DNA of 64,000 nucleotides. It comes from an uncultured Desulfofustis sp. Its GTDB lineage: Bacteria > Desulfobacterota > Desulfobulbia > Desulfobulbales > Desulfocapsaceae. This document shows, piece after piece, positions 5,343 to 43,482 of this stretch (positions are counted from its first letter, which is position 1; each line of letters begins with the position of its first letter). The notes under the pieces are model-generated. The model ran no database searches. It worked only from the letters and a program-made list of their open reading frames with translations, and was not told the origin of the DNA. Location of the stretch: the NCBI GenBank assembly GCA_964608305.1, contig CAZSOA010000001.1, positions 9,870 to 73,869 of the forward strand. Direction: 5' to 3'. A program made the position numbers and the translations under genes.

Positions 5343-5344
5343 TG

Positions 5345-16527: not shown

Positions 16528-16567
16528 GCTCCCCTCCTGTGCTGCTTCGTTTTCCTGGCCTTATTGC

Positions 16568-18337: not shown

Positions 18338-18439
18338 CCTCCCCCCGGCGCCGATGCACGGTTCGTGTCACGGCGATCGGTTTGTTTTCGTTTCAGCCGA
18401 TCCGACCATCCCGGAAGATGACCGGAGGGGCATCTGAGC

Positions 18440-19753: not shown

Positions 19754-19951
19754 CGACTCACCTCATGATTGAAAAAGTGGTTAGGCTAAGAGAACGTGCG
19801 GGTCTGTCATGCATGGTACCATATCTGCTCACTGAAATCCCCGCCAAGCACCATAAAATACATCACCTTGTGAAATTTCAATATCTTTCCAGGAGATTAA
19901 ATCTTTTTTTTAGAGCTCTGCCGGCTACCACAATGTTTCCCAGGAAAATTC

Positions 19952-19980
19952 TTGACACCCCCTCTGGTGTCTGATATATC
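19952..19980 (+). promoter_or_regulatory. Sigma-70-type promoter candidate for mmsA
   Basis: TTGACA (19952-19957), a 17-nt spacer, then TATATC (19975-19980). Confidence 0.45.
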
Positions 19981-20017
19981 ATCAATTGTCACGCACAAAA
20001 TCCAACACAAATCCGAT

Positions 20018-20111
20018 ATGATCGGAGGCTTCCCGTAGAACTTCGTACTATGATCAAGCCAAACCTGTTGTCAAACTCACCACCCGCTCGAATGCCTCCG
20101 ATCATTTTTTT
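20018..20111 (+). promoter_or_regulatory. Terminator-type leader element (candidate attenuator/riboswitch expression platform) in the mmsA 5' UTR
   Basis: ATGATCGGAGGC (20018-20029) is perfectly complementary to GCCTCCGATCAT (20094-20105). The arms enclose 64 nt and are followed immediately by a T7 run (20105-20111). No upstream plus-strand gene exists for it to terminate. Confidence 0.5.
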
Positions 20112-20200
20112 ATTCTCCTGCTGTTGCAGTACGCCACCGGGAATTGTTATATCGACATCGTTTCCCCCACCCAGCAAAACCATGTCACAGGAGTTGAGTC

Positions 20201-21760
20201 ATGCCTGAAATCAAACTGAACAACCCGGTTAAGAACTTTATTCATGGAGAATGGGTAGAAGAAACCGGCGTTGAGATGGTGCCGGTCTTCAATCCGTCAA
20301 CGGGAGAGCAGATCAGTGCTGTTCCACTGTCATCGGAAAAGACCTCTCTGGAAGCGGTCGACTCGGCCTATGGCGCCTACGATTCGTGGCGCCGGCTCTC
20401 GCTCGCCAAACGCATGGCTTATCTCTTCGATCTGCGCCAGGCAATCACCGATCACGAGGAAGAACTGGCGGTCATCATCGCCATTGACCAGGCCAAACAT
20501 ATTAGTGAAGCGCGTGGTGAGGTACGCAGGATCATAGAAATTTTCGAAATGGCCTGCACTATTCCGGCACTGCTGCAGGGTGAGACGCTCAACGGGATCT
20601 CGACAAACATTACCGGCCGGATCATCAAGGAACCGCTCGGGGTCTTCGGCGGGGTTGCCCCGTTTAACTTCCCGGCGCTGGTCTTTGCCTGGTTTGTCCC
20701 CTTTGCCATCGGTGTCGGCAATACCTTTATTTTCAAACCGTCCACTCAGTCACCGTTATTTATGCAGAAAATCGGTGAGCTATTCCAGGCCGTCGGCCTG
20801 CCGAAAGGCGTGGTCAACATCGTGCACGGCAACCGTAGTGTGCCCGGCACCTGGTATGAACACCCGAAAATGAGCGGTGTCTGCCTGGTCGGCTCGACTC
20901 CCACCGCCAAGAAGATGGCCGAAGCGTGCGGACGCGGCGGCAAGCGCAGCATGCTGCTCGGTGGCGCCAAGAACATTCTGGCGGTCATGGAAGATGCCCA
21001 GCCGGACGTGTTCATCGATAACTTTATCCATTCATGCTTCGGTTCCGCCGGCCAACGCTGCCTTGCCGGTTCCATCGTCGCGGTCGTTCCGGAAATCTAC
21101 GATTCATTCCTCGAGAAGATGATCGCAGCCGCCAAAGGTATCAAAACCGGTGACGCCTGTGACCCGGATGTTTACATGGGCCCGGTGATCTCAGCTCAGG
21201 CAAAAAAGAAAATCGAACAATATATCGAGATTGGCCTCAAAGAAGGATCAAACCTGGTTCTCGACGGCCGCAATCCAGTGCTGCCTGAGAAAAACAAGAA
21301 CGGCTACTTTGTCGGCCCGACCATCTTCGAAGGTGTCACCCCCTGCCGGACCATCGCCAAGGAAGAAATTTTCGGACCGGTCGTCTCCGTCATGAAGATC
21401 CGTGATCTCGACGATGTGCTCCAGATCATCAGGGCACAACCGTTCGGCAACGGTGCCTGTATCTTCACGCAGAACCAGTATTACACCGATCAGTTCATCG
21501 CAGAAGCCAATGTCGGGATGGTCGGCGTCAATGTCGGCATCTGTGCACCACATCCTTATCTGCCCTTTGGCGGTATCAAGGATTCTCACCTGGGCACCAA
21601 CAAGGTGCAGGGCAAGGATGGCATCGACTTTTTTACCCAGAATAAAGTCGCCACCATTCGTGTTGCCCCACCGACCGGCCACTACACGGGTGGTGCTGCG
21701 ACCGGTGCGCCAGCAGAGAAAAAGGCGAGCCCGGCCGTACGCAGTTGTGTTGCTCAGTAA
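20201..21760 (+). CDS. mmsA: CoA-acylating methylmalonate/malonate-semialdehyde dehydrogenase (ALDH superfamily)
   Basis: ALDH fold. The catalytic region FGSAGQRCLA and LLGGAKN (instead of ELGGK) are the MmsA/IolA-type signatures. AGGAG SD. Confidence 0.75.
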   Translation: MPEIKLNNPVKNFIHGEWVEETGVEMVPVFNPSTGEQISAVPLSSEKTSLEAVDSAYGAYDSWRRLSLAKRMAYLFDLRQAITDHEEELAVIIAIDQAKHISEARGEVRRIIEIFEMACTIPALLQGETLNGISTNITGRIIKEPLGVFGGVAPFNFPALVFAWFVPFAIGVGNTFIFKPSTQSPLFMQKIGELFQAVGLPKGVVNIVHGNRSVPGTWYEHPKMSGVCLVGSTPTAKKMAEACGRGGKRSMLLGGAKNILAVMEDAQPDVFIDNFIHSCFGSAGQRCLAGSIVAVVPEIYDSFLEKMIAAAKGIKTGDACDPDVYMGPVISAQAKKKIEQYIEIGLKEGSNLVLDGRNPVLPEKNKNGYFVGPTIFEGVTPCRTIAKEEIFGPVVSVMKIRDLDDVLQIIRAQPFGNGACIFTQNQYYTDQFIAEANVGMVGVNVGICAPHPYLPFGGIKDSHLGTNKVQGKDGIDFFTQNKVATIRVAPPTGHYTGGAATGAPAEKKASPAVRSCVAQ

Positions 21761-22145
21761 ACCCGAGAACTGGCAGGATAAAATATCAATCACACATTTT
21801 TATCGTGGGCTTTATTGATTTTTATCGAAAAAATACGGATAATAATCATGGCGCTTTTGGGCCTGATACAATACTGATACGTTTACTCCTTCCACACCGT
21901 TTCCTGAGCGCACCCAAGGAAGCGGTTCGAAGAGCACGAACCATGGGCGACGAGACCGTCTTCGTTCGCTCCGACAATCTTCCAGCAAAACCAGTGGCAA
22001 CGACTTTGGCTGCCCATACCCATAACTATGCAGCGGTCTCCCCGCCGACGATCTCGTGTCGGCGGGAAACCTGATCACCTGATTCGGGGAATTTTTGCAG
22101 ATAATGTCAAAGGTTAACACCAATCGACATATCTCTACCCACCTT

Positions 22146-22182
22146 CTGCCGGTTGCAATCGGCAGATCCGCTTTCTTTTTTC
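22146..22182 (+). terminator. Weak terminator-like hairpin plus T-rich tract inside a 680-bp non-coding gap
   Basis: CTGCCG (22146-22151) pairs with CGGCAG (22160-22165), followed by CTTTCTTTTTTTCTCC. Confidence 0.3.
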
Positions 22183-22440
22183 TCCGACCAGTCGTCATTG
22201 CCGCGCCGGCACCCTCTCCAGCCAACCGGCACGTGCTTGGATTGGCGCGGGCCACGCCGTTTTTAGAAAAACGAATACGGGGCAGTACCTGGTTGATACC
22301 TCCCTGCCGTGCACCGATGCACGACCGACGGCGAAACCCGCGCCCACTCGGGAGATCACCGTTCGTCAACGATTGATGATGCACGGTACAATCCGCGCCC
22401 ATTGACATAGAAGGGAACCACCTACGAGAAAGGAGAAACC

Positions 22441-23748
22441 GTGAGTATTGAAATCATCACCATCCTCTACTTTTTAGTCCTGTTCTTCGCTTTGTTTCTC
22501 GGGCTCCCGGTCGCTCTCGGCTTAGGTGGAACAGCCGTCATCTTCGCAGCATTTTTCGAGCCCCGTTCGCTGCTGGCAATCCCCAGCGCCTTCCACTACA
22601 CCCCGTGGAATCATGTCCTCGTCACGATCCCCCTGTTCCTGTTTATGGGCAGCCTGATCCGCTTTTCCGGTATTGCCGAAGCGGCCTATGATGCCGTCTA
22701 TAAACTGATCGGTCATGTAGCCGGCGGACTGGCCATGGGTACCGTTGCGGTCTGTACCATTTTTGCGGCGATTACCGGCATCACCCCGCCCGCAACGATC
22801 ACCATGGGCCAGATCGCCTACCCGTCGATGATGAAGTACCAATACAACCGGGCCATCGCCATCGGTTCCATCGGCGCCGGCGGCGCCCTGGGTGCACTGA
22901 TCCCGCCAAGCGTACCGTTCATTTTCTATGGGCTGCTCGCCAAGGTGTCCATCGGCGGCCTGTTTCTCGGCGGTGTCCTTCCCGGCCTGATGCTCGCCTC
23001 GTTCTACATCATCTATATCGGCATCCGCTGTAAGATCCAGCCGCACATGGGGCCCGGCCTGCCGGCGGAAGAGTCTTTCACGCTTAAAGAGAAAATCGTT
23101 TCAGTATTCAATATCTGGCCGTTCGTGGTCCTTATCCTGATGGTGCTCGGCGCCATCTGGGGTGGTATCGCAACACCGTCTGAAGCCGCTTCTTTCGGGG
23201 CCGCAGGCGCCTGTCTGATCAACCTCATTTACCGCAAACTGACCTGGCAGGTTTTAAAGGATTCACTGGAGACCACGTTAAAGCTGTCCGGTATGGGCCT
23301 GTGGATTTTGATCGGCGCCAATATCTACCTTAACGTTTTCAACTCAATGGGATGCCAGGAACTGGTAACCAGACTCGTGCTCGGCATGCCCGGCGGTGAA
23401 AACGGCATCCTGCTGATGATGATGTTCATTATCCTGCTGCTCGGAATGTTCATGGACGACTGGGCGATCATCATGCTCTGCACGCCGCTGTATATCCCGA
23501 TAATAAACGAACTCGGTATCGATAAACTGTGGTTCGGCGTCCTGTTTATCGTCAACATCCAGATCGCTTATCTGACGCCGCCGTTTGGTTTCGTGCTGTT
23601 CTGGATCAAGAGTATTCTGCCGCCTGATGTGACCATGGGAGACGTCTATCGGTCGGTCGGGCCCTTTATCGTTTTGCAGATTATCGGCCTCTCGCTCATC
23701 TTCTTCTTCCCGCAGATCGCCCTGTGGTTACCCAGCATGATGAACTGA
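22441..23748 (+). CDS. dctM: TRAP transporter large permease (DctM family)
   Basis: 435 aa polytopic protein, GTG start with AGGAGA SD. The conserved C-terminal motif YLTPPFGFVLF is present. The same motif (FLTPPFGFSLF) occurs in the second dctM at 45585. Confidence 0.9.
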   Translation: MSIEIITILYFLVLFFALFLGLPVALGLGGTAVIFAAFFEPRSLLAIPSAFHYTPWNHVLVTIPLFLFMGSLIRFSGIAEAAYDAVYKLIGHVAGGLAMGTVAVCTIFAAITGITPPATITMGQIAYPSMMKYQYNRAIAIGSIGAGGALGALIPPSVPFIFYGLLAKVSIGGLFLGGVLPGLMLASFYIIYIGIRCKIQPHMGPGLPAEESFTLKEKIVSVFNIWPFVVLILMVLGAIWGGIATPSEAASFGAAGACLINLIYRKLTWQVLKDSLETTLKLSGMGLWILIGANIYLNVFNSMGCQELVTRLVLGMPGGENGILLMMMFIILLLGMFMDDWAIIMLCTPLYIPIINELGIDKLWFGVLFIVNIQIAYLTPPFGFVLFWIKSILPPDVTMGDVYRSVGPFIVLQIIGLSLIFFFPQIALWLPSMMN

Positions 23749-23865
23749 GTCGAGATAGCAAGGAGTTGAAAACACTGAAAGGCAACGAACTATCGGCACC
23801 GCACGACCCATCGATCGCCTGCTGATATCGTATTCTTCAGGAAATATTGCCTGGCGGAGGAACGT

Positions 23866-24372
23866 ATGAAGTTCTGGAACGTGGTACAAAAAATCATCGA
23901 TTTTATATGCGAAGCAATGGGCCGGATCGGCTGGCTGCTTGTCTTGTACTGCATGATTTTCGGCGTCAGCGATGTCTATTTTCGCTACATCCTCAATTCA
24001 CCATCGCTGTGGATCGCCACCACGCTGCAGGTGGCCATGGTTCTGATGGCCTGCATGGGCGGCGCCTATGCCCTGAACCATGATGCCTTCGTTAAGCTCG
24101 ACCTGTTCTATGCACGCTTTTCCAAAAAGAAAAAAGCCGTCTGCGACATCCTTACCGTTCCCTTTTCCTTTCTGTTCCTCGGGGTATTGGTCTGGAAAGG
24201 GTGGGAGGCGGCCATGCTGTCACTCAAATTAAAACAGGTCACCCCGACGAGTATCCCGATCCCACTCTATCCGATCAAAATTTTGATCCCGATAGCCGGA
24301 TTCATTGTCTTGCTCGTCGTCATTAAAAAGCTGGTAAACGATATAATTACGGTGTGCTCAAAGGCTGAGTAA
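23866..24372 (+). CDS. dctQ: TRAP transporter small permease (DctQ family)
   Basis: 168 aa, 4 TM, located between dctM and dctP. GGAGGA SD. Confidence 0.8.
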   Translation: MKFWNVVQKIIDFICEAMGRIGWLLVLYCMIFGVSDVYFRYILNSPSLWIATTLQVAMVLMACMGGAYALNHDAFVKLDLFYARFSKKKKAVCDILTVPFSFLFLGVLVWKGWEAAMLSLKLKQVTPTSIPIPLYPIKILIPIAGFIVLLVVIKKLVNDIITVCSKAE

Positions 24373-24514
24373 TAACTCGTCCAGCGACAGCAACAAACGG
24401 CACCGTCTTTTGTTCTGCTGCGAGACAAGTTATGGGGAGGGGGTTGATTGATCGCATTGACGCAACCTCTAATCTTTCGATGACAAACTGAAGAACAACA
24501 GGAGGGAAAACGCA

Positions 24515-25570
24515 ATGAAAAAGCAGTCTATGAAGTTCCTGGCCGTGATGTCCGCATTCGGCATCATGTCCATGGCCGGCTCCGCACTCGCAGCGGATGC
24601 GTACGGTCCCCCGGACAAGGTAACGACCTTGCTGTTCCAGCCGTGCTTCGACCAGTCCGATGCCGGCTGGCCGCTCGGCGTCGTGCCGTGGATCAAGGCG
24701 GTTGAGGAAGCCACCCAGGGCACCGTCACCTTCAAACTTGAACCTGCCGGCGCCATCACCAGTGGTGACGAGGCGTTTGGCGCAACCATCGCCGGCATGA
24801 TCGATGTCTACGCCGGTTGGGCCACCGTCTACGGCGGCGACATGCCGGAAGGCATGCTGGCCTTTGGCCTGGCCATGGGCGCCAATAACTGGCGTGATGC
24901 CTGGGCCGCCATGTGGGGTGATCCGAAGTACCGGATCGGCGATCTCGTTCAGGAAGCAGCCAAAGAGCGAAACCTGCGCTGGGTCGGTTGGACGAGTCAG
25001 GGCCCCAATGCTATGTTCACCAAATTCCCGGTCAATAAGCTGGAAGACCTGGCCGGCAAGAAAATGCGAGCCGGCGGCCCGCATGCACTCTTCCATGAAG
25101 CCATGGGCGGTGCACCGGTAGCCATGAGCGGTGGCGACATCTACACCGCCATCAAACTCGGCACCATCGACGGAACCTACTGGGATACCGGCGGAATCGA
25201 CGACATGTCATTCCATGAGGTCATCAATTACGCCATCATGCCCGGCTGGTGCCCGGCGCAGCATCAGGAAATCTACATCAATCTCGACAAGTGGAATTCC
25301 CTGACGCAGTGGCAGCGCGACCAGATCGACAGCATCTTCATGCCGACCTATTTCGAGACCAGCCGTCTGCACTGGGAAGGTGTCGAAGAGGCACTGGAGA
25401 TTCTGAAAAACGCCGGCGGCGAAGTCATTCACCTGTCCGAAGAAGAGGTGAAGCGAATGCGCGCGCGGTCGGTCGACGTGGTCTGGCCGAAAGTTGCCGA
25501 GAGGTCCGAGCGTAACGCCAAAGGCGTCGCGCTGTGGAAAGAGTTCCTGGAGGACATTGGCGAGTTATAA
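24515..25570 (+). CDS. dctP: TRAP transporter substrate-binding protein (DctP family)
   Basis: Signal peptide (AGSALAADA). The size and the ...LEDLAGKKMRAGG...YTAIKLGTIDG pattern are typical of DctP-type SBPs (substrate-binding proteins). Confidence 0.85.
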   Translation: MKKQSMKFLAVMSAFGIMSMAGSALAADAYGPPDKVTTLLFQPCFDQSDAGWPLGVVPWIKAVEEATQGTVTFKLEPAGAITSGDEAFGATIAGMIDVYAGWATVYGGDMPEGMLAFGLAMGANNWRDAWAAMWGDPKYRIGDLVQEAAKERNLRWVGWTSQGPNAMFTKFPVNKLEDLAGKKMRAGGPHALFHEAMGGAPVAMSGGDIYTAIKLGTIDGTYWDTGGIDDMSFHEVINYAIMPGWCPAQHQEIYINLDKWNSLTQWQRDQIDSIFMPTYFETSRLHWEGVEEALEILKNAGGEVIHLSEEEVKRMRARSVDVVWPKVAERSERNAKGVALWKEFLEDIGEL

Positions 25571-25620
25571 GTCGTTGTAGCAACGGCTTCTGCAGCAGAT
25601 TTTCTTCAGTTTGTACGTGC

Positions 25621-25680
25621 AAGGCGCGTCCGGTCCTGCCGATTGAACGGCAGTCGGGCGCGCCTTTTGCTGTTTTTTTT
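25621..25680 (+). terminator. Rho-independent terminator of the TRAP operon
   Basis: AAGGCGCG...CTGCCG-ATTGAA-CGGCAG...CGCGCCTT compound hairpin followed by TTGCTGTTTTTTTT. Confidence 0.7.
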
Positions 25681-25707
25681 AGGAAAAACCGATTGATTAT
25701 CAACAAA

Positions 25708-26550
25708 TCAGCTCGTTGCTGTCGGTCGACCTCCACGAGCCAGGCGTGCCTGGATCTCATCGATTACCGGCTCCAACTCGGCAACACTGTCGATGACATA
25801 ATGGGCGCCGGCAGCCGTCAGCTGGCGGCGTGCACTATCCACCAATGCACTGGCGACACGGTCGTCGAGACGGGCGAATTCATCGTGAGACAGACCGCAG
25901 AGATTGCCGGTTCGGGCAACCCCCACGGCCCAGACACCGGCGTTGCTCGCGGTATGCATATCGATGATGGTATCGCCGACATTGACCACCGCCGGTGGGG
26001 GGAAAACCGCCAATCGTTCCATCAGCCGGAAGATCATCCATGGTGCCGGTCGACCGGCGGGAACGTCAGAAGCCGATAGTGACGCATCGGGTATATACCC
26101 CTGGGCAGCTGCCGCTCGGGCAACTACTTCCGCTGCCTCCCGATAATAGCCCGTTGACGCAGCAATCTTCAGACCACGCCGGCGCAACGACGCCACCGTG
26201 TCGACCACACCGGCGATCACCGTCCCATGGTCCTGCAGGGCGTCATCGAGCAGCGGTCCGAAGAGCTGATAGAGATCATCGATATCTTCGCTGGTCGACG
26301 CTCGCCCATGCCTGCAGCGCCAGGCTTCAGCAACTCGATCAATGGCCATAACCGCAGCGATGTGATCCCGTTTTGCCATGCCCATGGGCTCCCGCGCCTC
26401 AGCCATGGTAATGGTCACACCGCGCTTGCGAAACCCTTCAACAAACGCCGCTGCCGGTGCGCAGCAACCGTAGTCAACGGTCGTTCCGGCCCAGTCGAAA
26501 ATAATCAGTTGGACGGTTTGTCCGCTCCCGGGTGCGTTCGACCGACTCAT
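25708..26550 (-). CDS. phnX: Phosphonoacetaldehyde hydrolase (phosphonatase), HAD superfamily
   Basis: LIIFDWAGTTVDYGC (HAD motif I in the PhnX context), EPMGMAKRDHI (Schiff-base Lys region), GRPAPWMIF, and VGDTIIDMHTASNAG. Confidence 0.85.
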   Translation of the reverse strand: MSRSNAPGSGQTVQLIIFDWAGTTVDYGCCAPAAAFVEGFRKRGVTITMAEAREPMGMAKRDHIAAVMAIDRVAEAWRCRHGRASTSEDIDDLYQLFGPLLDDALQDHGTVIAGVVDTVASLRRRGLKIAASTGYYREAAEVVARAAAAQGYIPDASLSASDVPAGRPAPWMIFRLMERLAVFPPPAVVNVGDTIIDMHTASNAGVWAVGVARTGNLCGLSHDEFARLDDRVASALVDSARRQLTAAGAHYVIDSVAELEPVIDEIQARLARGGRPTATS

Positions 26551-26584
26551 CGACCTAACTGGCTGTCAGGCAACGATGCCAACA

Positions 26585-27268
26585 TTAGACGTGGACACCG
26601 TTTTCTTTATAAAACGTGTAAATGAAATCCTTCTGGACCTCAAAGGACCAATGGACATCCTTAAGAATTCTGGCGGCTTCAGCACCGTTGCCCCGTTTCA
26701 TAGCTTCGATCAGGGTCTGGTGTTCAAGGCAATTGCGATACTCCCATTCCGCGATGTAATTCTTGCGCGGAAAGTCGTAGAGCCGATGTTTGATAGGCAG
26801 AATGAACTTCTTGAGCATTCCGTTAACGGAAATATCTACATAGACGTTGTGGAATTGCAGGTTGGTCTTGAAAAAGGTCGAAAAGTCGTTCGCGCTGATG
26901 TCGGCAAACATCTTTTCATTGAGCGACTCCAGTTGCTCAATGTGGTGGGGCCTTATCTTATCGATGCATTCCTCGACGATAAAGGCCTCGACCAGACCGA
27001 TCGCATCGTAGGCATGACGGACATGCTCGAGTTCAAGTTTGTTGACCAGCACCCCCCGACGCGGGATGATGGTCACGAATCCTTCAAGCTCAAGGTGGAT
27101 CAGCGCATCTCGGAGGGGGGTTTTACTGATGCCGAGTTGCTGGGCGATTTCGCCGATATTGATTGTCGACCCCGGCAACAGATCACCTTCATTCATCTGC
27201 CGGCGCAGATAGTCGTAGACCAACTCGCTCAGCGACGAATAATTCAGCGTCTCACTCATCGGCGACAT
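26585..27268 (-). CDS. GntR-family transcriptional regulator (FadR/FCD subfamily)
   Basis: Winged HTH ...GEIAQQLGISKTPLRDALIHLELEGFVTIIPRRGVLV plus a helical FCD-like C-domain. The track ORF starts at 27352, but the GGAGGAGG SD sits just before ATG 27268/27259. Confidence 0.85.
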   Translation of the reverse strand: MSPMSETLNYSSLSELVYDYLRRQMNEGDLLPGSTINIGEIAQQLGISKTPLRDALIHLELEGFVTIIPRRGVLVNKLELEHVRHAYDAIGLVEAFIVEECIDKIRPHHIEQLESLNEKMFADISANDFSTFFKTNLQFHNVYVDISVNGMLKKFILPIKHRLYDFPRKNYIAEWEYRNCLEHQTLIEAMKRGNGAEAARILKDVHWSFEVQKDFIYTFYKENGVHV

Positions 27269-27392
27269 GCCTCCTCCTGCACGCATTGACGTTATACTTT
27301 CCCGATCTGCATTTATGTCATCACAATCTAAACGATTCTGAGTACATGTCAAGCAAACAGGAAAGTATAACGCCGTCGAGGCCGTGCCACGC

Positions 27393-28508
27393 TCAGTTCA
27401 AAAATGTCTCAACTGGTGTATACTCCAGGCCAAACGCTTCAGCAACAGCCTGATAGGTAACCGCGCCGTGGATAACATTGGCGCCCAGTTTGATCTCGTC
27501 GTTTTCCTGCATTGCCTTCTTCCACCCTTTATTGGCAATCTGGAGTGCATAGGGCAGTGTAGCATTGGTCAAGGCGATGGTCGAGGTCCGCGCGACCGCC
27601 CCGGGCATATTGGTCACACAATAGTGTACGACGCCGTCGACGACATAGGTCGGATCGGCATGGGTGGTGGGCTTGGACGTTTCTGAACATCCCCCCTGGT
27701 CAATGGCCACATCGACGATCACCGATCCTTTTTTCATACTGGCGACCATATCCCGGGTGATCAATTTCGGAGCCTTGGCGCCGGGAATCAGCACCGAGCC
27801 GATCACCAGATCTGCCTTGGCCACATATTCGCGGAGCAACGCCGGGTTCGACATGATGGGCACACAATTGGCCGGCATGATGTCATCAAGATAGGATAAC
27901 CGCTCGAGATTGGTGTCAAGAATATAGACCATGGCCCCGAGGCCGCAGGCCATCTTTGCCGCATTGTAGCCGACCACACCGCCACCGATCACCACTACGG
28001 TAGCCGGTTCGACGCCGGTGACGCCGCCGAGCAACACGCCACTGCCTCCCTGGGGCATTTCCAGGCATCGGGCGCCGACCTGAGTGGCCATCCGTCCTGC
28101 CACCTCACTCATCGGCACGAGCAGCGGCAACGAGCCGTTTGTCTTTTTGATGGTCTCATAGGCTATGTTGACCGATTTCGCCTTGATCAGGGCACGAGTC
28201 TGCTCCTCGTCGGCAGCCAGGTGCAGATAGGTGAAGATGATCTGGTCTTCGCGGATCATATCGTACTCTGCCGGCAACGGCTCCTTCACATGCATGACCA
28301 TGTCGCAGGCGCCGTAGATTTCCGCAGGAGTGGCGGCGATGGTTGCGCCGGCAGCGAGATATTCGGCATCCTCAAAACCGGCGCCGGATCCGGCACCGGT
28401 CTCAACGAACACCTGATGGCCGTTGGCAACCATGGTGGCAACACCGGTGGGAACCATACAGACCCGCTTTTCCATAACCTTGATCTCTTTTAATATCCCG
28501 ACTTTCAC
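27393..28508 (-). CDS. ald: Alanine dehydrogenase
   Basis: MKVGILKEIKVMEKRVCMVPTGVATMVANGHQVFVETGAG... and VVIGGGVVGYNAAKMA are the canonical Ald sequence pattern. Confidence 0.95.
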   Translation of the reverse strand: MKVGILKEIKVMEKRVCMVPTGVATMVANGHQVFVETGAGSGAGFEDAEYLAAGATIAATPAEIYGACDMVMHVKEPLPAEYDMIREDQIIFTYLHLAADEEQTRALIKAKSVNIAYETIKKTNGSLPLLVPMSEVAGRMATQVGARCLEMPQGGSGVLLGGVTGVEPATVVVIGGGVVGYNAAKMACGLGAMVYILDTNLERLSYLDDIMPANCVPIMSNPALLREYVAKADLVIGSVLIPGAKAPKLITRDMVASMKKGSVIVDVAIDQGGCSETSKPTTHADPTYVVDGVVHYCVTNMPGAVARTSTIALTNATLPYALQIANKGWKKAMQENDEIKLGANVIHGAVTYQAVAEAFGLEYTPVETFLN

Positions 28509-28603
28509 GTGTATCCTCCATAGCTAATAAAGTGGACAGGTCGGCCCCAACACAGAGCAAGGGAAGCAGGGCCAGTGAAGCAGTTTCTTCATCTCCGGCT
28601 TGC

Positions 28604-30007
28604 TCAGATACCCATTTCTGCGGCCTTGCGAACCGTTGCAACAACCCGATCGATCTGCTCTTTGGTGATGGTCAGTGATGGAGCGAAGTTCATAACCGTA
28701 TTGAGCCCGGTGATGCTGCTGTTGGTCCGGCCGACGATCACGTTTTGGGCAAAGACATTGCCGACGAGTTTGGCCATTTCGCCTTCCGATACCGGTTCCT
28801 TGGTTTTCTTATCGCGCACGAATTCAACACCGCAGAACAGGCCGACGCCGCGGACATCGCCAACCAGCGGCAGATCCAGCAACTCTTTGAGTTTATCCAG
28901 CAGATAGGCGCCTTTTTCACGAGCCTGTTCAATCAGGTTCTCTTCCTCGATAATCCGGGTCGTTTCCAAGGCCGCCGCCATCGGTCCGGCGCATCCGCCA
29001 TATGTGCTGATATCGCGGAAAAAATCCAACCGCTTCGCCGGATCACTCGGATCATTGAGAAAAATTTCGAAAAGACGATCTCGCACCACCATCGCCGACA
29101 ACGGCTCATACGAACTGGCCAACCCTTTGGCCATGGTGACGATATCGGGGTCGACGTCATAATGTTCATGGCCCCAGAACTTGCCGGTACGGCCGAAACC
29201 ACAGACCACTTCGTCCATGATCAGCCAGACATCATGCTTCCTGCAGATTTCCTGAACAATGGGGAAATATTCCGGTACCGGCGGAATGATTCCGCCACCG
29301 GCGGTAATCGGCTCGACAATGAGCCCGCCGACGGTCTCCGGTCCTTCTTTGACGATAATGTCATCGATGACGCGGGCACAGTCGATAGTACAGTTCGGAT
29401 ACGATTTGTCGAACGGGCAGCGATAGCAACAGCAGTTGGGAAATTCGACAAAGCCGGGAACAAGCGGTTCGAAATGCTTCTTGCGCTCGATCTGGCCGGA
29501 TGCGCTCATCGCGCCGAAAGTGGTCCCGTGATAGTCCCGATCGCGGAACATGATTTTGATCTTGTCCTTGCGCTCCGGCGCGATACGGGCCGCCTGGCGG
29601 ATCAACTTGAAGGCCTTCTCGTTTGCTTCAGAGCCGCTGTTGGAAAAATAGACTTTATGGAGACGCGGCAGCTTCTCAAGCAGTTTTCCGGCAAACTTGA
29701 TTGCCGGAACGTTTCCATAGGCACCGGCGAAGTACGGCATCTCCAGCAGCTGCTCATAGACAACTTTGGCAACCGATTCCCGCCCGTAACCGACAATGAC
29801 GCTCCAGACCCCGCCGGACGTAACATCGAGAAATTCCCGCCCTCTGATATCGGTGATCATCAGGCCGTCGGCTTTGACCGGAATCATCTGCTCCGCTGTT
29901 TCAAAAACTTTGTGCGGCTTCAGGTGGTGCCACAAGAAGTCTTTATCGCCTTTGACGATCTCTTCGGTGTTGTATTGAAGCACATCTGATTTACTCATGA
30001 CTCTCAC
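28604..30007 (-). CDS. tpa: Class III omega-aminotransferase, taurine:pyruvate aminotransferase-like
   Basis: 467 aa. FLWHHL..., GGVWSVIVGYGRE, FSNSGSEANEKAFK, LIMDEVVCGFGRTG and TMAKGL (PLP Lys). Its position between xsc and ald is the classical taurine-degradation context. Substrate assignment is by context only. Confidence 0.7.
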   Translation of the reverse strand: MRVMSKSDVLQYNTEEIVKGDKDFLWHHLKPHKVFETAEQMIPVKADGLMITDIRGREFLDVTSGGVWSVIVGYGRESVAKVVYEQLLEMPYFAGAYGNVPAIKFAGKLLEKLPRLHKVYFSNSGSEANEKAFKLIRQAARIAPERKDKIKIMFRDRDYHGTTFGAMSASGQIERKKHFEPLVPGFVEFPNCCCYRCPFDKSYPNCTIDCARVIDDIIVKEGPETVGGLIVEPITAGGGIIPPVPEYFPIVQEICRKHDVWLIMDEVVCGFGRTGKFWGHEHYDVDPDIVTMAKGLASSYEPLSAMVVRDRLFEIFLNDPSDPAKRLDFFRDISTYGGCAGPMAAALETTRIIEEENLIEQAREKGAYLLDKLKELLDLPLVGDVRGVGLFCGVEFVRDKKTKEPVSEGEMAKLVGNVFAQNVIVGRTNSSITGLNTVMNFAPSLTITKEQIDRVVATVRKAAEMGI

Positions 30008-30039
30008 CTCGTTTGATAGTAATACGGTCTTGCGGTATC

Positions 30040-30055
30040 GGCTTCTGCAGTGCCA
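30040..30055 (-). promoter_or_regulatory. Weak sigma-54-like promoter candidate upstream of the aminotransferase gene
   Basis: On the minus strand: TGGCACTGCAGAAGCC, a perfect -24 TGGCAC with GC at the correct -12 spacing but a poor -12 context (AAGCC). It lies 33 nt upstream of ATG 30007. An extended -10 (TGCTACAAT, 30114..30106) is an alternative. Confidence 0.25.
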
Positions 30056-30305
30056 TGCGGATTCTTGTCACCAGACATGGTCGATAACCGTCTTGCAACG
30101 TCCGGATTGTAGCACGAATGCTTGGTTTCGTAACAAAAACCTTGGCAAAAACCAAGCAATTCTATTCGTTCACCGGTAAATCAGGATCTTGCATCTCGAT
30201 GATGCCCCCGGCTTTGAAAAACCAACGACTGCCCAACGGTTCTCCTTCCAATTCAGCTTGATGGCGAGAGAACCGCCGGGCAACCCCACCCCGATCCGGG
30301 GGTCT

Positions 30306-32093
30306 TTACGCTTTCTGCTGCGGTCGCATATCGGCCGCATCGATACCGGCGACCGGAACCGGCGTTTTCATCGCATCTCGGCGGAACGGCTCTCCGAGTT
30401 CCTTGTTGACCAGCACTTCGATAAAGGTTGTTTTCCCCTGCTCCATCTGTGCCTTGATGGCGGCGTTGAGTTTCGCCGTCAGGTCCTCCATCGAGGTGGC
30501 TTGGGTTCCTTCCAGGCCGCAGGCACGGGCAATCGCGGCGTACGAAACATCGGTGTCAAGCTCGGTGCCGACAAAGTTATCCGCATACCAGAGCGTGGTG
30601 TTGCGTTTCTCCGCACCCCACTGGTAATTACGGAAGATCAGCATCGTAATCGGCGGCCAGTTACTGCGGCCGCAGACGGTCATTTCATTCATCGAGATAC
30701 CGAATGCGCCGTCACCGGCCATACCGACGACCGGCACATCCGGACGGGCGATCTTCGCACCAAGGATCGCCGGAAATCCGTAGCCACACGGCCCGAACAG
30801 GCCGGGAGAAAGATATTTTCTGCCTTCTTCGAAGGTTGGGTAGGCGTTGCCGATGGCGCAGTTATTACCGATGTCCGACGAGATGATAGCCTCTTTCGGC
30901 AAGGCCGCCATGATCGCCTGCCAGGCCATCCGCGGCGACATCTTCTCCGGCTCGGTGGTTCGGGCCCGCTCGTTCCAGGTGGTACCCGGGTCGTCGGCCT
31001 CGTGAACGATGGTCTTGAGTTCTTCATCCCAGGCCGCCTTGGTTTTGGCGATCAGCGCTTTTCGCTCTGCCCGGCCGGCATCCCCCGCCGTTTTTGACAA
31101 TTTGCCAAGAATGCCGCTTGCCACTTTCTTGGCATCGCCGACGATACCCACGGTAACCGGTTTGGTCAGACCGATGCGATCCGGGTTCATATCCACCTGG
31201 ATGATCGCCGCGTTTTTCGGCCAGTAGTCGATACCGTAGCCGGGCAAGGTAGAAAACGGGTTGAGCCGCGTGCCAAGAGCCAGTACGACGTCGGCCTTGG
31301 CGATGAGTTCCATTCCGGCCTTGGATCCGTTGTACCCGAGCGGGCCGGCAAACAGCGGATGGCTGCCCGGAAAGGCATCGTTATGCTGGTAGCCGCAGCA
31401 GACCGGCGCATCAAGACGCTCGGCCAGGGCCATGGAATCCTTAATGGCATTACCGAGCACCACGCCGGCGCCGTTGAGAATGACCGGGAATTTCGCATCG
31501 GAGAGCAGCTTTGCGGCACGCTCAATGGCCTCTTCGCCTCCTCCGGGACGCTCGAACTCGATGATGGCCGGCAGCTCGATCTCGATAACCTGGGTCCAGA
31601 AATCCCGGGGAACGTTGATCTGAGCCGGGGCCGACGCCCGCTTGGCCTTCATGATAACCCGGTTGAGGACCTCGGCGATGCGGGCCGGCGTCCGTACCTC
31701 TTCCTGGTAGGCAACCATATCTTTGAACACCGCCAACTGCTCCACTTCCTGAAAACCGCCCTGGCCAATCGTCGCATTGGCAGCCTGCGGCGTTACGAGC
31801 AGGAGCGGAGTATGATTCCAATACGCCGTTTTGACCGGTGTCACGAAGTTGGTGATACCGGGGCCGTTCTGGGCAACGATCATCGACATCGTGCCGGAGG
31901 CCCGGCTGAAACCATCGGCCATCATCCCGGCGTTGCCTTCATGGCCGCAATCCCAGAAGGTGATACCGGCTTTGGGGAACAGATCGGAGATCGGCATCAT
32001 CGCCGAACCGATAATACCGAACGCATGCTCAATCCCGTGCATTTGCAAAACTTTGATAAACGCTTCTTCCGTCGTCATTTTCATGGTAGCCAT
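30306..32093 (-). CDS. xsc: Sulfoacetaldehyde acetyltransferase (ThDP-dependent)
   Basis: MATMKMTTEEAFIKVLQMHGIEHAFGIIGSAMMPISDLFPKAGITFWDCGHEG...NGPGITNFVTPVKTAYWNHTPLLLVTPQA...FRNYQWGAEKRN...ELGEPFRRDAMK closely matches Xsc sequences as I remember them. GGGGAGG SD before ATG 32093; the track start 32144 is probably too long. Confidence 0.9.
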   Translation of the reverse strand: MATMKMTTEEAFIKVLQMHGIEHAFGIIGSAMMPISDLFPKAGITFWDCGHEGNAGMMADGFSRASGTMSMIVAQNGPGITNFVTPVKTAYWNHTPLLLVTPQAANATIGQGGFQEVEQLAVFKDMVAYQEEVRTPARIAEVLNRVIMKAKRASAPAQINVPRDFWTQVIEIELPAIIEFERPGGGEEAIERAAKLLSDAKFPVILNGAGVVLGNAIKDSMALAERLDAPVCCGYQHNDAFPGSHPLFAGPLGYNGSKAGMELIAKADVVLALGTRLNPFSTLPGYGIDYWPKNAAIIQVDMNPDRIGLTKPVTVGIVGDAKKVASGILGKLSKTAGDAGRAERKALIAKTKAAWDEELKTIVHEADDPGTTWNERARTTEPEKMSPRMAWQAIMAALPKEAIISSDIGNNCAIGNAYPTFEEGRKYLSPGLFGPCGYGFPAILGAKIARPDVPVVGMAGDGAFGISMNEMTVCGRSNWPPITMLIFRNYQWGAEKRNTTLWYADNFVGTELDTDVSYAAIARACGLEGTQATSMEDLTAKLNAAIKAQMEQGKTTFIEVLVNKELGEPFRRDAMKTPVPVAGIDAADMRPQQKA

Positions 32094-32593
32094 AGCAACC
32101 TCCCCTGAGATGATGGTTGAGAATTTCTCACGTACGAGCAACAACCGATGGACGCTTCCGCCGCAACACGTTTCGCGCTGGATCGAAGGGGTCAGCGGCT
32201 CTTTGCCGAACTATTATGCGGCGGCAGCCCCCAAGGCCTGAAACCAACCCGCAAACTGGCGAAACGTGGTCGTTTGTGCCGCTTCTTTTTTACTGATACA
32301 TCAAATACCAGGGCCGTGTCAATACAATTTTCACGGTCGTTTCCAACGGTCGGGACAGACTTCTGTAATCTTCTTTTATGTCAGGATGTTTTCATAAACA
32401 TACGAGAATAACAGAAGTGAGATTGTTCCGCTTTCCAGCAGCTGATCGTTGTCCAGAACCTGCCAAGACGACTCCCAGCAATGGTCCGCAGAGAGTGGCG
32501 AAAAAATACCGCCGACAATGAACCATTCGTCTTGAAACAAACACTCAACAGACAACAGACTCCACTGACAACCCACATCACAGGAGACCAGCC

Positions 32594-33469
32594 ATGAAAC
32601 CGTCAACAACAATCTTTGCCATGCTCATCGCCCTTTCTATCGTAATCGGCGGTACCACCGATGAGTGTGCAGCCGAAGTTAATCTTCACTCCTGGGATGA
32701 AAATGGCACCCACTGGATTTTCACCATTTATGATGATGGGTCGATGTATGAATGGGCCTATTACGCTGATGGACGAATAGAAGGAGATGAGATCGGACGG
32801 GACGACGGTTCCGACAGTGGTTCATCAGGTTCAAGGACGACTGCCGATGATATCAAGGACCTTGCCCGCCGCTCCTATCACGGCAAATTGAGCAAGGGTG
32901 TGCAGACGAACAATCCGTTTGCAATCAAGCAAAGCGGCAGCGGCAAAGGGCTCGCACCGCGCTGGAACCCGCCCGGACGGCACTCGAGCGGAGTCGACGG
33001 CACAACCGGCTCGGGGCCGGGCAGCAACGGCGGCGGTACCGGTGAATGGTTCAAGGCAATGGCGAAAAAAGGCAACAGCGACGACGGCGACAACGATTCC
33101 GGCAAAGGCCCCGGAAAACGGCCGGAACTCGGCACCAACGGTTCAATCCGGCCGGAACGGGTCAACCCGGTTCCGAACCTCCATCAGCACCTGCGTCAAT
33201 CGATAGCCGACTCCCGAGCCCTGCGTCAACAGGTCCCCGCCACCGGCGCCAAAGGAACCAAAAACCTGACCACGGTGACCAGCCAGGCACATGAACTGCA
33301 GCGAAAGAATACATCGCTGAAAAAGAGAGGAACCGAAACGCCGGCCGGAAAAACCACGGCGAGTTCCCTTGGCGTCAAAACCAAACAGGGACAACAACTC
33401 CAGACCAGCACGGTTGCGCCACCAGCAGCCAAACGAACCGTCGTTGTCCAGCAATTTGACCGCCGGTAA
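32594..33469 (+). CDS. Secreted low-complexity (Gly/Ser/Thr/Lys/Asp-rich) protein, hypothetical
   Basis: Signal peptide MKPSTTIFAMLIALSIVIGG, a small aromatic N-domain (WDENGTHWIFTIYDDGSMYEWAYYADG), then about 220 aa of disordered-looking sequence. AGGAGA SD. Confidence 0.6.
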   Translation: MKPSTTIFAMLIALSIVIGGTTDECAAEVNLHSWDENGTHWIFTIYDDGSMYEWAYYADGRIEGDEIGRDDGSDSGSSGSRTTADDIKDLARRSYHGKLSKGVQTNNPFAIKQSGSGKGLAPRWNPPGRHSSGVDGTTGSGPGSNGGGTGEWFKAMAKKGNSDDGDNDSGKGPGKRPELGTNGSIRPERVNPVPNLHQHLRQSIADSRALRQQVPATGAKGTKNLTTVTSQAHELQRKNTSLKKRGTETPAGKTTASSLGVKTKQGQQLQTSTVAPPAAKRTVVVQQFDRR

Positions 33470-33545
33470 AGCCTTTGAAAGGAACGAAGATACGGTCAGC
33501 GGATGGACACGGGTCCGTTTTCGATGGCCACCGCCACAGAAGAAC

Positions 33546-33585
33546 CATCAGGGCCCCGTGGGAATCATTCCACGGGGCCCTGATG
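33546..33585. terminator. Perfect 16-bp GC-rich hairpin (probable terminator or structured element)
   Basis: CATCAGGGCCCCGTGG (33546-33561), loop GAATCATT, CCACGGGGCCCTGATG (33570-33585). There is no strong T-tract on plus; GTTCTTCTG follows on minus. Confidence 0.55.
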
Positions 33586-34219
33586 TGAAGAAGAACCGCT
33601 GATTTCAGCGGATGTTCGTTGGCTCCCCCTGGTAAACGCACTCAAGAACTTGTTTGACGAATCGTCGAAGACCTAATCTGACACTATTCTGGTGGCCCAA
33701 TGCGAGTTAAAAGATGGCTTCCTCGACAATAATTAATCGATAGATCGTAAAAAGACGTCAGCCGAGACTCCAGCGGAAATCTGCAGCGGGGATACCCAAC
33801 ACGACTAAGCAACACGGGTAAAGACAGCCAGCAATCTGGGGTTCGTTTTCGGTGATACCGATACCCATTCGAGATCCCCGCATGCTCATTGACGATCCAA
33901 CAGAAAGTTTGGGGACCTACCCGACTCACCCGGTTCGAGACGATCTCCACAAACTGGCGTCTTCCTTTCGACCCGGCGAATGCGAATTGCAAGCTATACG
34001 GTCTGGCGGCATTCCGACGGCTTTTGTAACTATTTTTCTTGAATAGCGTTTATCTGTAATCGTATTTTACTCCACAAACTCGTTTTTTGAGGACTATCCG
34101 GCTTGATCCTGTCCCAAGCGCAAAAACTATTTTCTTGAAAACATCCGATATTGTAACTATAAATTATGAATTATTAAACTATTTAATCATTTTTTGAGAT
34201 CCGTAACGATTTTTGAGTT

Positions 34220-35746
34220 GTGATGATAGTGGAGAGGACCCGACACCGGTTGGCAGGCTATGCGTTTCTGATAGAGCGATACACCGTGAGCGCTCTACCG
34301 AACTGGCACTCGTCCTCAATCAGCCCGACGGGCGCGCTACGCTCGACCATTCAGGATGGGCTGGTGGAATCGGTCTATCCCTCGTCCTACTGGCCCGGAG
34401 ACGGGACGGGAAATCATCTGGAGTTTGCCCTCAAGTATGACGGCGTCAATCTGGGCATCTTGTCGGCCCTTTTTGATGTGCTCCCAGCAGACGAGATAGC
34501 GGCCTGGATCAGCTCAAAACCGACCGGGAAATACACCCGCAGGATCTGGTATCTGTATGAATTGCTGACCGGACGGGAACTCCCGCTGCCGGATCTGACC
34601 AAAGGGAATTACGTTGAGCTGCTTGAGCCGGACCGCTACTACACCGCAGCCCCCGGCCGGCGCGTGCAGCGCCAGAGAGTCGTCGACAATCTGCTTGGCG
34701 GGAGATATTTCTGCCCCATCGTCCGGCGTACCGAAAAGCTCGCCATCATGGAAGGAATCGACCTGCGGAAACGGTGCGAAGAGATCGTAACCTCCTATCC
34801 ACCGGAGTTGCTCAGACGAGCACTCAGCTACCTGTACCATAAAGAGACCAAGTCCTCGTTCGAAATCGAACACGTCAAGCCGAGCGCCTCCCGGACAGAG
34901 AAATTCATCGGTTTGCTGGAGATGGCCGAACACAAGGATTTTTGCGAGAAGCCTCTGCTGATCGACGTGCAGAACCGCATCGTCGATCCCCGATTCCGAG
35001 ACATGGACTACCGGACCAATCAAAACTACGTTGGCCAGTCTGTTTCCTACCAGAAGCAGCTCGTGCACTATGCCTGCCCGAAACCCGGTGACCTCCCGGA
35101 ACTGATGGCGGGACTGCTCGCTGCTCATCACGTCATGAAAGATGGTGCGGTCCCTGCCATTATCCATGCCGCAGCCATCTCCTACGGATTCGTCTTCATG
35201 CACCCCTTTGAGGACGGCAACGGCCGTATTCACCGGTTTCTCATTCACAATATCCTGTTCCTGCGCGGCGAGATCCCGAAAGGGCTCATGTTCCCGGTCT
35301 CTGCCGCCATGCTGAAAAATCCGGCGCTTTACGATCACTCCCTGGAAGCGTTTGCCAACCCGTTGATGCGGCTGGTTGAATACGAACTGGACGATCTCGG
35401 GCAGATGACTGTGCCGGATGCGACCGGACCTCTGTACCGATACATCGACATGACCGCTCAAGCGGAGGCGTTGTATGAATTCGTCAAGCTCACCATCGAC
35501 CACGAACTGGTGGAAGAACTCGATTTTCTGGCGAATTACGACAAAACCAAGCAGGGTATTCAGGAGATCGTGGACATGCCGGACCGCCTCATTGATCTTT
35601 TTATCCAGCTCTATCTGCAAAACCATGGGCGCATTTCGGCGAGAAAAAGGGAATCGCATTTCGGATTTTTGACCGATGACGAGGTGGCCGACATGGAAAC
35701 GGTCGTCAGGAAGGGGTATGCGGGAGGAGGTAGCTCAGAATTCTGA
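34220..35746 (+). CDS. Fic-family protein (AMPylase-type Fido domain), 508 aa
   Basis: Canonical Fic motif HPFEDGNGRIHRFLIHN. An N-terminal Fic_N-like region carries ETKSSFEIEH (an inhibitory-helix-like SxxxE). Start is GTG 34220 or ATG 34223. Confidence 0.9.
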   Translation: MMIVERTRHRLAGYAFLIERYTVSALPNWHSSSISPTGALRSTIQDGLVESVYPSSYWPGDGTGNHLEFALKYDGVNLGILSALFDVLPADEIAAWISSKPTGKYTRRIWYLYELLTGRELPLPDLTKGNYVELLEPDRYYTAAPGRRVQRQRVVDNLLGGRYFCPIVRRTEKLAIMEGIDLRKRCEEIVTSYPPELLRRALSYLYHKETKSSFEIEHVKPSASRTEKFIGLLEMAEHKDFCEKPLLIDVQNRIVDPRFRDMDYRTNQNYVGQSVSYQKQLVHYACPKPGDLPELMAGLLAAHHVMKDGAVPAIIHAAAISYGFVFMHPFEDGNGRIHRFLIHNILFLRGEIPKGLMFPVSAAMLKNPALYDHSLEAFANPLMRLVEYELDDLGQMTVPDATGPLYRYIDMTAQAEALYEFVKLTIDHELVEELDFLANYDKTKQGIQEIVDMPDRLIDLFIQLYLQNHGRISARKRESHFGFLTDDEVADMETVVRKGYAGGGSSEF

Positions 35747-43453: not shown

Positions 43454-43482
43454 TTGTCAATTGATGACAAATGCCGTATCAT
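43454..43482 (+). promoter_or_regulatory. Sigma-70-type promoter with an overlapping 17-bp palindrome (putative operator)
   Basis: TTGTCA (43454-43459), a 17-nt spacer, then TATCAT (43477-43482). The -35 is part of the inverted repeat TTGTCA-ATTGA-TGACAA (43454-43470). Confidence 0.55.

Follow-up and report, generated by a model that had tools for sequence, protein, structure and literature searches.

A phosphonatase gene joined to a taurine operon in Desulfofustis and other Desulfobacterota, and an aminotransferase possibly shared by taurine and 2-aminoethylphosphonate

The stretch of DNA analyzed here, referred to as the window, is 64,000 nucleotides of contig CAZSOA010000001.1 from an uncultured Desulfofustis sp., and its host is a Desulfofustis-like sulfate reducer. 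The window contains a taurine cluster composed of sulfoacetaldehyde acetyltransferase (xsc), a class III aminotransferase of the taurine-pyruvate type (tpa), alanine dehydrogenase (ald), and a GntR regulator, followed by phnX, the gene for phosphonoacetaldehyde hydrolase (phosphonatase). The enzymes are all known. What is new is the presence of phnX without the transaminase gene phnW in a Tpa/Xsc operon of strict anaerobes, the repeated independent assembly of this arrangement, and a conserved operator assigned to the GntR. Both the taurine route and its regulation have good support. The phosphonoacetaldehyde used by PhnX may come from Tpa acting on 2-aminoethylphosphonate (2-AEP), a reading given about an even chance (roughly 0.5) from comparative genomics and the known promiscuity of Tpa. 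Among natural phosphonates, 2-AEP is the most abundant, and in current models PhnX-based degradation needs either PhnW or, in aerobes, the PbfD oxidase.

Gene calls in the window are based on an open reading frame (ORF) listing and on profile searches (Pfam, NCBIfam). An earlier note, made from the sequence alone, had described a minus-strand run of xsc, a class III aminotransferase, ald, an FCD-type GntR, and phnX facing dctM-dctQ-dctP. Every gene it named was found at essentially the same coordinates (Table 1), and the two domains of the regulator agree with its view that this is not a MocR-type TauR. Xsc matches all three TPP_enzyme domains (PF02776, PF00205, and PF02775), and its longest possible ORF extends to 32144. 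The aminotransferase ORF opens at 30007, while public gene calls begin at 29998 and give a protein of 464 aa. The gntR gene starts with ATG, with GGAGGAGG just before it, and phnX starts 34 bp past the gntR stop codon. The absence of phnW, pta, and tauE, also remarked on in that note, extends to the whole 64 kb. A bona fide PhnW from a canonical locus (L075; loci fetched for comparison carry L numbers) has no tblastn match in the window, no PF00266 protein occurs among the scanned ORFs, and Pfam and NCBIfam scans of the large ORFs found no pta, ackA, TauE, or MocR regulator. Positions 15-34 kb likewise hold no MocR-type TauR, sulfite/sulfate exporter, or pta.

The aminotransferase is, by its sequence, a Tpa-type enzyme. 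Among solved structures, the Bacillus anthracis protein 3N5M matches it best (373 bits, 43% identity). Kollipara et al. placed the Tpa of Bilophila wadsworthia (Q9APM5) and Q5LVM7 of Ruegeria pomeroyi in the 3N5M subfamily, where a seven-position active-site fingerprint reads M-W-Y-R-G-G-N in 3N5M and L-W-Y-R-G-G-T in both Tpa (PMC9418295). The fingerprint comprises 3DM positions 16/47/129/145/185/346/348, and Tpa has R145 but lacks the flipping arginine. When the 3N5M alignment and that paper's supplementary alignment are used to locate these positions, the window enzyme has L29, W68, Y159, R175, G237, G426, and T428. This pattern is identical to Q9APM5 and Q5LVM7, with positions 16 and 348 as in Tpa (L, T) and not as in 3N5M (M, N). 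Six of the seven positions are invariant among 28 Desulfobacterota orthologs, with position 16 reading L in 26 of the 28. Against a Bilophila Tpa sequence read by optical character recognition, identity is ~47%, a lower bound. The closest relatives are from Desulfofustis (84-87% identity), followed by other Desulfocapsaceae, Desulfobacula, Desulfotignum, and further Desulfobacterota, and orthologs are labelled taurine-pyruvate aminotransferase by JGI and UniRef. The taurine route of Tpa, Ald, and Xsc that the earlier note recognized is thus borne out by the exact Tpa fingerprint, and the placement it had proposed as a check for 28604-30007 comes out, by fingerprint and identity, as Tpa-type within the 3N5M subfamily. 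Given the identity to Bilophila Tpa and the adjacency to xsc and ald in ~40 loci, the enzyme is predicted to convert taurine and pyruvate to sulfoacetaldehyde and alanine. Assignment as PbfA was rejected, since the protein scores 247.8 bits against the NF049939 cutoff of 525 and has the Tpa fingerprint instead.

The Bilophila enzyme is promiscuous, with activities of 250 mU/mg on taurine, 95 on beta-alanine, and 25 on gamma-aminobutyrate (GABA) (PMC9418295, Table 2); the beta-alanine rate is given as 38% of the taurine rate (PMC9418295). In the proposed phosphonate branch, the same Tpa would also transaminate 2-AEP, the phosphonate analogue of taurine and beta-alanine, which is plausible and in keeping with this promiscuity.

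Window proteins were mapped onto 73 fetched loci. The xsc-tpa-ald-gntR module is conserved in ~40 of them, all Desulfobacterota, and most related loci have the FCD GntR behind ald. Many of the loci continue the module with dctMQP, an aldehyde dehydrogenase (ALDH), and a second GntR. In L003-L013, L022, L043, L054, and L164, TRAP genes of 67-92% identity accompany the xsc module in synteny. Because the module is conserved across loci, the FCD-type GntR, the TRAP transporter, and the lack of pta and tauE are the normal design of the phylum and not a peculiarity of the window. The regulator and the two absences had been listed as unusual in the earlier note, a view that does not survive the comparison. 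Its suggestion that the released sulfite could serve as electron acceptor is reasonable, as the host reduces sulfate and an orthologous cluster occurs in Desulforhopalus singaporensis (L014), a sulfate reducer for which taurine fermentation has been reported (Lie et al. 1999, via PMC5573963). The TRAP system is the presumed importer of taurine and related 2-aminoethyl acids. Solved structures assign no ligand to its binding protein, for which the best match, to a lactate binder, reaches 102 bits and that to the isethionate binder only 31. In the Desulfopila and Desulforhopalus isolates L008 and L013, two tandem paralogous FCD-GntR genes follow ald, and an extra pair of ALDH and Tpa paralog (53% identity) lies upstream of xsc.

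phnX is a recurrent addition to this module. It lies directly downstream of gntR in Desulfofustis (the window, D. glycolicus DSM 9705 [L003], L004, and L164), in the Desulfopila-like contigs L035 and L158, and in the Desulfobacula metagenome-assembled genomes (MAGs) L018 and L050, in which the two genes abut. In the Desulforhopalus MAG L043, phnX stands after the second GntR, following tpa-dctMQP-ALDH. No tblastn match to PhnW (query from L075) was found in any tpa-linked phnX locus. In the Desulfopila-like contigs, panC comes next after phnX and tauE is adjacent (L035 9063-9968, L158 2602-4304). PanC is pantoate-beta-alanine ligase, which again ties the cluster to beta-alanine, and the opposite strand encodes the TauE sulfite exporter, an AsnC regulator, a second Tpa-like aminotransferase, and an ALDH. 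In Desulfobacula L018 (14081-18346), an Old Yellow Enzyme-family flavoprotein follows phnX, with an MFS transporter and an aldehyde:ferredoxin oxidoreductase (AFOR) on the opposite strand. This is the second case of an AFOR near a tpa-linked phnX.

Because PhnX changes at about twice the pace of the aminotransferase, sequence identity alone was judged insufficient as proof of independent recruitment. A neighbor-joining tree was built instead from 42 PhnX sequences and bootstrapped 200 times. All tpa-linked PhnX were monophyletic in 0% of replicates (0 of 200). The L043 protein groups with phnW-linked copies (the P0171 group) at 99.5%, the Desulfobacula proteins fall outside the main Desulfobulbales-type clade at 81%, and the Desulfofustis proteins group with the Desulfopila-like ones at 63%. 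Topology and support thus indicate at least three separate recruitments of phnX, never with phnW. This repeated joining argues for a functional link and not a chance juxtaposition. The earlier note had proposed a neighborhood search for co-occurrence of xsc and phnX and knew of no characterized operon with this combination. That stands insofar as no paper was found to mention both phnX and xsc, or both taurine-pyruvate aminotransferase and aminoethylphosphonate, but the arrangement itself recurs in several genera, and xsc and phnX also meet in a second design described below.

PhnX very likely acts on phosphonoacetaldehyde, judging from its residues and family score. It is 43% identical to the crystallized phosphonatase of B. 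cereus and retains all eleven catalytic and substrate-binding positions, namely Asp12, Ala14, Cys22, Met49, Lys53, His56, Thr126, Tyr128, Arg160, Asp186, and Asp190. Asp12 is the nucleophile, Lys53 forms the Schiff base, and C22, M49, H56, T126, Y128, R160, D186, and D190 are substrate or Mg ligands. The same eleven positions are intact in every other tpa-linked PhnX and match the PhnW-linked enzymes. With the family cutoff passed, the residues complete, and the PhnW search negative, the earlier description of a PhnX without a nearby phnW holds.

Selection was estimated between the window and two Desulfofustis genomes. The synonymous rate (dS) of phnX is 1.3-1.5, and neighboring genes are similar. 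Its nonsynonymous rate (dN) is ~0.26, against 0.05-0.13 for the neighbors, and the ratio of the two (omega) is 0.15-0.21, against 0.02-0.08. The dS like that of the neighbors and the low omega indicate that phnX was inherited in place and kept functional. Its low identity between the Desulfofustis genomes (65-67%, neighbors 80-93%) was considered as a sign of xenologous replacement, which was rejected because dS matches that of the neighboring genes. Constraint on phnX is about threefold weaker than on its neighbors, as expected for an accessory function. The same rapid divergence could be taken to mean that the PhnX homolog has drifted to another taurine-linked substrate, e.g., another beta-carbonyl phosphonate or an acyl phosphate, or that the juxtaposition is functionless. 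This is very unlikely, given the eleven intact positions shared with PhnW-linked enzymes, a score well above the equivalog cutoff, an omega far below 1, and an association that recurs independently. A changed substrate is much less likely than either a PhnW encoded elsewhere or a protective role for PhnX, both of which are considered below.

A second xsc and phnX design, of an aerobic type, was found in metagenomes, where 5 of 80 PhnX-centered loci have xsc within 3 kb. The order in L128 is a Tpa-like aminotransferase, a MocR regulator (tauR), xsc, a TIGR03364 FAD oxidoreductase (pbfD), phnX, tauE, and ackA. TIGR03364 corresponds to the PbfD family. The pair of PbfD-like gene and phnX is nested in the taurine operon in L128, L122, and L091. 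With this design, the union of C-S cleavage with C-P cleavage in a single operon is seen to recur in nature. In a plasmid collection queried with the window and L128 clusters, only xsc had matches, and no record held xsc and phnX together. Zangelmi et al. (2023) showed that PbfD enzymes use O2 to oxidize AEP and N-methyl-AEP to phosphonoacetaldehyde (PMC10590968). They do not oxidize taurine or beta-alanine and often replace PhnW (PMC10590968). As PbfD uses O2, it is unsuitable for a strict anaerobe.

Several observations weigh against Tpa as the source of phosphonoacetaldehyde. phnX is missing from most of the orthologous clusters and so is dispensable, and it evolves about three times faster than its neighbors. 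No aminotransferase residue tracks phnX in a comparison of 7 clusters with the gene and 21 without it, so any AEP activity would be unselected promiscuity. The window holds no phosphonate transporter, TRAP and RND being the only transporter types found there, and a literature search found no published assay of Tpa with AEP. In the second design, a PbfD-like oxidase stands beside phnX despite the Tpa in the same cluster, which hints that Tpa alone is perhaps a poor AEP transaminase. A class V PhnW may also be encoded elsewhere in these genomes. PhnX would then partner that enzyme, its position behind gntR would reflect co-regulation or gene-order drift, and Tpa would be uninvolved in phosphonate metabolism.

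PhnW is common among other Desulfobacterota, and close relatives of the window PhnX occur in canonical gntR(UTRA)-phnW-phnX clusters of related anaerobes (L075 and L159). Inspection covered the window and partial loci, so that a distant phnW would lie outside it, and the aminotransferase shows no visible adaptation. A PhnW elsewhere is nonetheless considered unlikely. phnX was recruited into the same module at least three separate times and phnW never came along, although the two genes are normally adjacent, with start and stop only a few bases apart in L075 and L159. Among the best 120 PhnW matches, all at >=59% identity, none comes from Desulfofustis, Desulfopila, Desulforhopalus, or Desulfogranum. 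Supporting context for the Tpa reading comes from other relatives, where phnX stands beside a decayed phnW or without one. L076 has an intact phnX just downstream of a decayed phnW remnant (4072-4335) of 87 aa, with 63% identity to a segment of PhnW. L160 matches L159 in gene order, except that gntR(UTRA) and phnW are deleted and phnX is left alone, and phnX is also alone in Desulfogranum L074.

Regulation of the cluster probably centers on a 17-mer, TGGTRTYTGATRTATCA, that occurs exactly twice in the window, each time between a TTGACA box and a -10 region. One copy is in the xsc promoter and the other in the promoter of the ALDH gene upstream of dctM, and the ALDH belongs to the same regulon as the xsc cluster. 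A fuller palindrome, TGATATCTGATATATCAGATATCA, lies ~100-190 bp upstream of xsc in ~35 Desulfobacterota loci and before dctM or ALDH in many. The ALDH-promoter site is also present in L003 and L004, and the site is found upstream of dctM in L005, L008, L011, L013, and L014. The palindrome is most simply read as the putative operator of the cluster's own GntR, and the FCD GntR is likely the repressor of the regulon. Identification of this GntR as PhnR was ruled out, as it scores 90 bits with TIGR03338 against a cutoff of 271.5 and has an FCD rather than a UTRA domain.

The gntR gene has its own internal promoter, with the two arms of a perfect 13-bp inverted repeat, CGTTATACTTTCC / GGAAAGTATAACG, on either side of it at 27290-27302 and 27360-27372. 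Promoter and repeat are kept in the Desulfofustis loci L003 and L004. Distinct from the xsc/ALDH operator, the repeat could be an autoregulatory site or a site for a second regulator. Starting only 34 bp past gntR, phnX is probably transcribed with it and by read-through from xsc. Expression of phnX with the regulator from a promoter that lacks the operator suggests a basal level, which would suit a safeguard. In that case, Tpa would adventitiously make phosphonoacetaldehyde, a close sulfoacetaldehyde analogue, from environmental AEP, PhnX would clear this aldehyde, which may inhibit Xsc or react, and AEP would be no growth substrate. Relaxed selection, the patchy occurrence of phnX among orthologous clusters, and the lack of both a phosphonate transporter and visible Tpa adaptation fit such a role. 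Yet inhibition of Xsc by phosphonoacetaldehyde is hypothetical, AEP would still need to enter the cell, and the aerobic-type design with its dedicated AEP oxidase looks catabolic and not protective. On balance, a purely protective PhnX seems doubtful.

The ALDH may add a third branch. It scores 449.6 bits with TIGR01722 against a cutoff of 448.5, a borderline match to the (methyl)malonate-semialdehyde dehydrogenase (MMSDH) type, and its position next to the TRAP genes is conserved at 74-92% identity. It is unlikely to be the acylating sulfoacetaldehyde dehydrogenase SauS, which is SucD-type (PMC10413351), whereas the window protein is MMSDH-type. In L031, L036, L038, L041, and L042, the aminotransferase is paired with an MMSDH-type ALDH alone. 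A beta-alanine branch is possible because Bilophila Tpa uses beta-alanine and because relatives have these pairs; the dehydrogenase would handle malonate semialdehyde formed from beta-alanine.

In the proposed scheme, a Desulfofustis-like sulfate reducer has its genes for taurine dissimilation in one regulon, which has gained a phosphonatase gene at the 3' end. The TRAP system would probably import taurine, which Tpa would convert to sulfoacetaldehyde with pyruvate as amino acceptor. Ald would regenerate pyruvate and release ammonium, and Xsc would cleave the C-S bond of sulfoacetaldehyde to yield acetyl phosphate and sulfite. Housekeeping AckA/Pta and dissimilatory sulfite reductase would take these two products, and their role as consumers would explain a cluster without pta and tauE. 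The FCD GntR would repress the xsc and ALDH/TRAP promoters through the conserved palindromic operator, and the phnX transcript would come from the gntR promoter and from read-through of the xsc promoter. With phosphonoacetaldehyde supplied by Tpa, PhnX would release acetaldehyde and phosphate. This phosphonate branch could provide carbon, nitrogen, and phosphorus from AEP or remove an aldehyde that resembles the Xsc substrate. A broader and more tentative proposal is that Tpa and Ald form a hub with three spokes, Xsc for taurine, PhnX for 2-AEP, and the MMSDH-type ALDH for beta-alanine, under one FCD-GntR operator. Sulfate reducers of anoxic sediments might then mineralize AEP without PhnW, oxygen, or phosphate starvation, using a system assembled at least three times independently.

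The closest known system is the Tpa-Ald-Xsc taurine route, known from the Tpa of Bilophila wadsworthia and the Xsc of Desulfonispora, Rhodococcus, Ruegeria, and Paracoccus. The window has the same three enzymes, chemistry, and Tpa fingerprint, and the sulfite would be released inside a sulfite-reducing anaerobe. The classical proteobacterial taurine cluster, which follows the pattern tauR-tauABC/KLM-tpa or tauXY-xsc-tauZ/E-pta and has the layout tauR / tauABC-...-xsc-yeiH-pta on a Roseateles plasmid (L161), differs in several respects. In place of a MocR-type TauR and TauABC, the window has an FCD GntR with its own palindromic operator and TRAP uptake. Its cluster has no pta, tauE, or tauZ and includes phnX and a linked MMSDH-type dehydrogenase. 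The window PhnX is also a full member of the family that serves the PhnW-PhnX phosphonatase pathway (regulator PhnR, transport by PhnSTUV/AepXVW). In contrast to that pathway, phnX is embedded in a sulfonate operon, and class V PhnW, a phosphonate ABC transporter, and a PhnR of the LysR or GntR-UTRA type are all absent from the window. Published surveys state that PhnX requires PhnW (PMC9381506). PbfD2-PhnX clusters are a precedent for replacement of PhnW by an unrelated phosphonoacetaldehyde-forming enzyme (PMC10590968), but the window has no oxidase, leaving the Tpa-type transaminase as the sole candidate. PbfA, the (R)-1-hydroxy-2-AEP ammonia-lyase, is another protein of class III aminotransferase fold encoded beside phnX. 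It accompanies PhnW and does not replace it (PMC8154272), and the window enzyme has the Tpa fingerprint. With the beta-alanine:pyruvate transaminase and malonate-semialdehyde dehydrogenase route (BauA/MmsA-type), the window shares a 3N5M-subfamily enzyme and an MMSDH-family ALDH in the regulon, but its cluster also bears Xsc and PhnX.

If Tpa does feed PhnX, this coupling would be a third entry route into PhnX-based degradation, and one independent of oxygen. Turnover of organosulfonates and organophosphonates would be linked in sulfate-reducing sediments, and metagenomic surveys that score AEP catabolism by co-occurrence of phnW and phnX would miss these organisms. Desulfofustis glycolicus DSM 9705 is in culture and bears the same cluster, making the hypothesis directly testable. 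The GntR operator and the wide distribution of xsc-tpa-ald-gntR also describe how taurine respiration is organized across Desulfobacterota.

Table 1. Features of the taurine regulon and adjoining genes (positions in the 64 kb window).
Feature	Position	Strand	Evidence or remark
beta-hydroxyacid dehydrogenase	15622-16527	-	
aldehyde:ferredoxin oxidoreductase (AFOR), tungsten-type	16568-18337	-	
GABA:2-oxoglutarate transaminase	18440-19753	-	TIGR00700, 567 bits
operator-like 17-mer TGGTGTCTGATATATCA, ALDH promoter	19965-19981	+	second copy
ALDH, MMSDH-type, CoA-acylating (methyl)malonate-semialdehyde dehydrogenase family	20201-21760	+	upstream of dctM; TIGR01722, borderline
TRAP transporter, dctM 22441-23748, dctQ 23866-24372, dctP 24515-25570	22441-25570	+	PF06808, PF04290, PF03480; convergent with phnX
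GC-rich hairpin, 12-bp stem, between convergent dctP and phnX	25621-25666	.	T-run after it on + strand
phnX, phosphonoacetaldehyde hydrolase	25708-26550	-	TIGR01422, 330 bits (cutoff 220)
GntR regulator with FCD effector domain	26585-27268	-	PF00392 and PF07729
internal gntR promoter, TTGACA-16-TAGATT at 27352-27325	27290-27372	-	strong sigma-70-like, without the 17-mer
ald, alanine dehydrogenase	27393-28508	-	TIGR00518, 504 bits (cutoff 392)
tpa-type class III omega-aminotransferase, 3N5M subfamily	28604-29998	-	PF00202, 299 bits; proposed shared deaminating enzyme
xsc, sulfoacetaldehyde acetyltransferase (thiamine diphosphate-dependent)	30306-32093	-	TIGR03457, 918 bits (cutoff 676); NF005713, 1022 bits
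operator-like 17-mer TGGTATTTGATGTATCA, xsc promoter	32294-32310	-	between TTGACA -35 and -10, overlapping -10

The hairpin between dctP and phnX is the terminator for dctP. The spacer between ALDH and dctM (21761-22440) is 680 bp long and has no Rfam match. Its sole ORF (21812-22408), Arg-rich and on the opposite strand, was judged spurious. An Rfam scan of 19000-34500 at E <= 0.1 found no RNA element.

Directly upstream of the taurine regulon is a minus-strand operon (15622-19753) made up of GABA transaminase, AFOR, and beta-hydroxyacid dehydrogenase. It is probably an anaerobic GABA/succinate-semialdehyde route, and its GABA transaminase is syntenic in the Desulfofustis loci L003 and L004. 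Acetaldehyde released by PhnX might be consumed by the AFOR. A second AFOR paralog is located further along the window, past a second TRAP transporter (dctM 45585-46919 and dctP 47523-48602, both on the minus strand). This transporter adjoins arginine genes on the plus strand, within 43471-48602 / 50623-52530, that encode a protein with an ArgZ-like arginine dihydrolase C-terminal domain and an arginase-family protein.

A YeiH/TauZ-family gene (54943-56685, plus strand) is found 23 kb from the taurine cluster. Its 580-aa product has a C-terminal PF03601 domain and an extra N-terminal region of ~220 aa. In the Roseateles plasmid L161, a YeiH-family gene lies between xsc and pta. A Fic-domain protein is encoded at 34220-35746, downstream of a secreted low-complexity protein (32594-33469). 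The stretch at 4000-8000, near a GDPD phosphodiesterase, is low in GC, at 0.47-0.49 compared with ~0.58 elsewhere.

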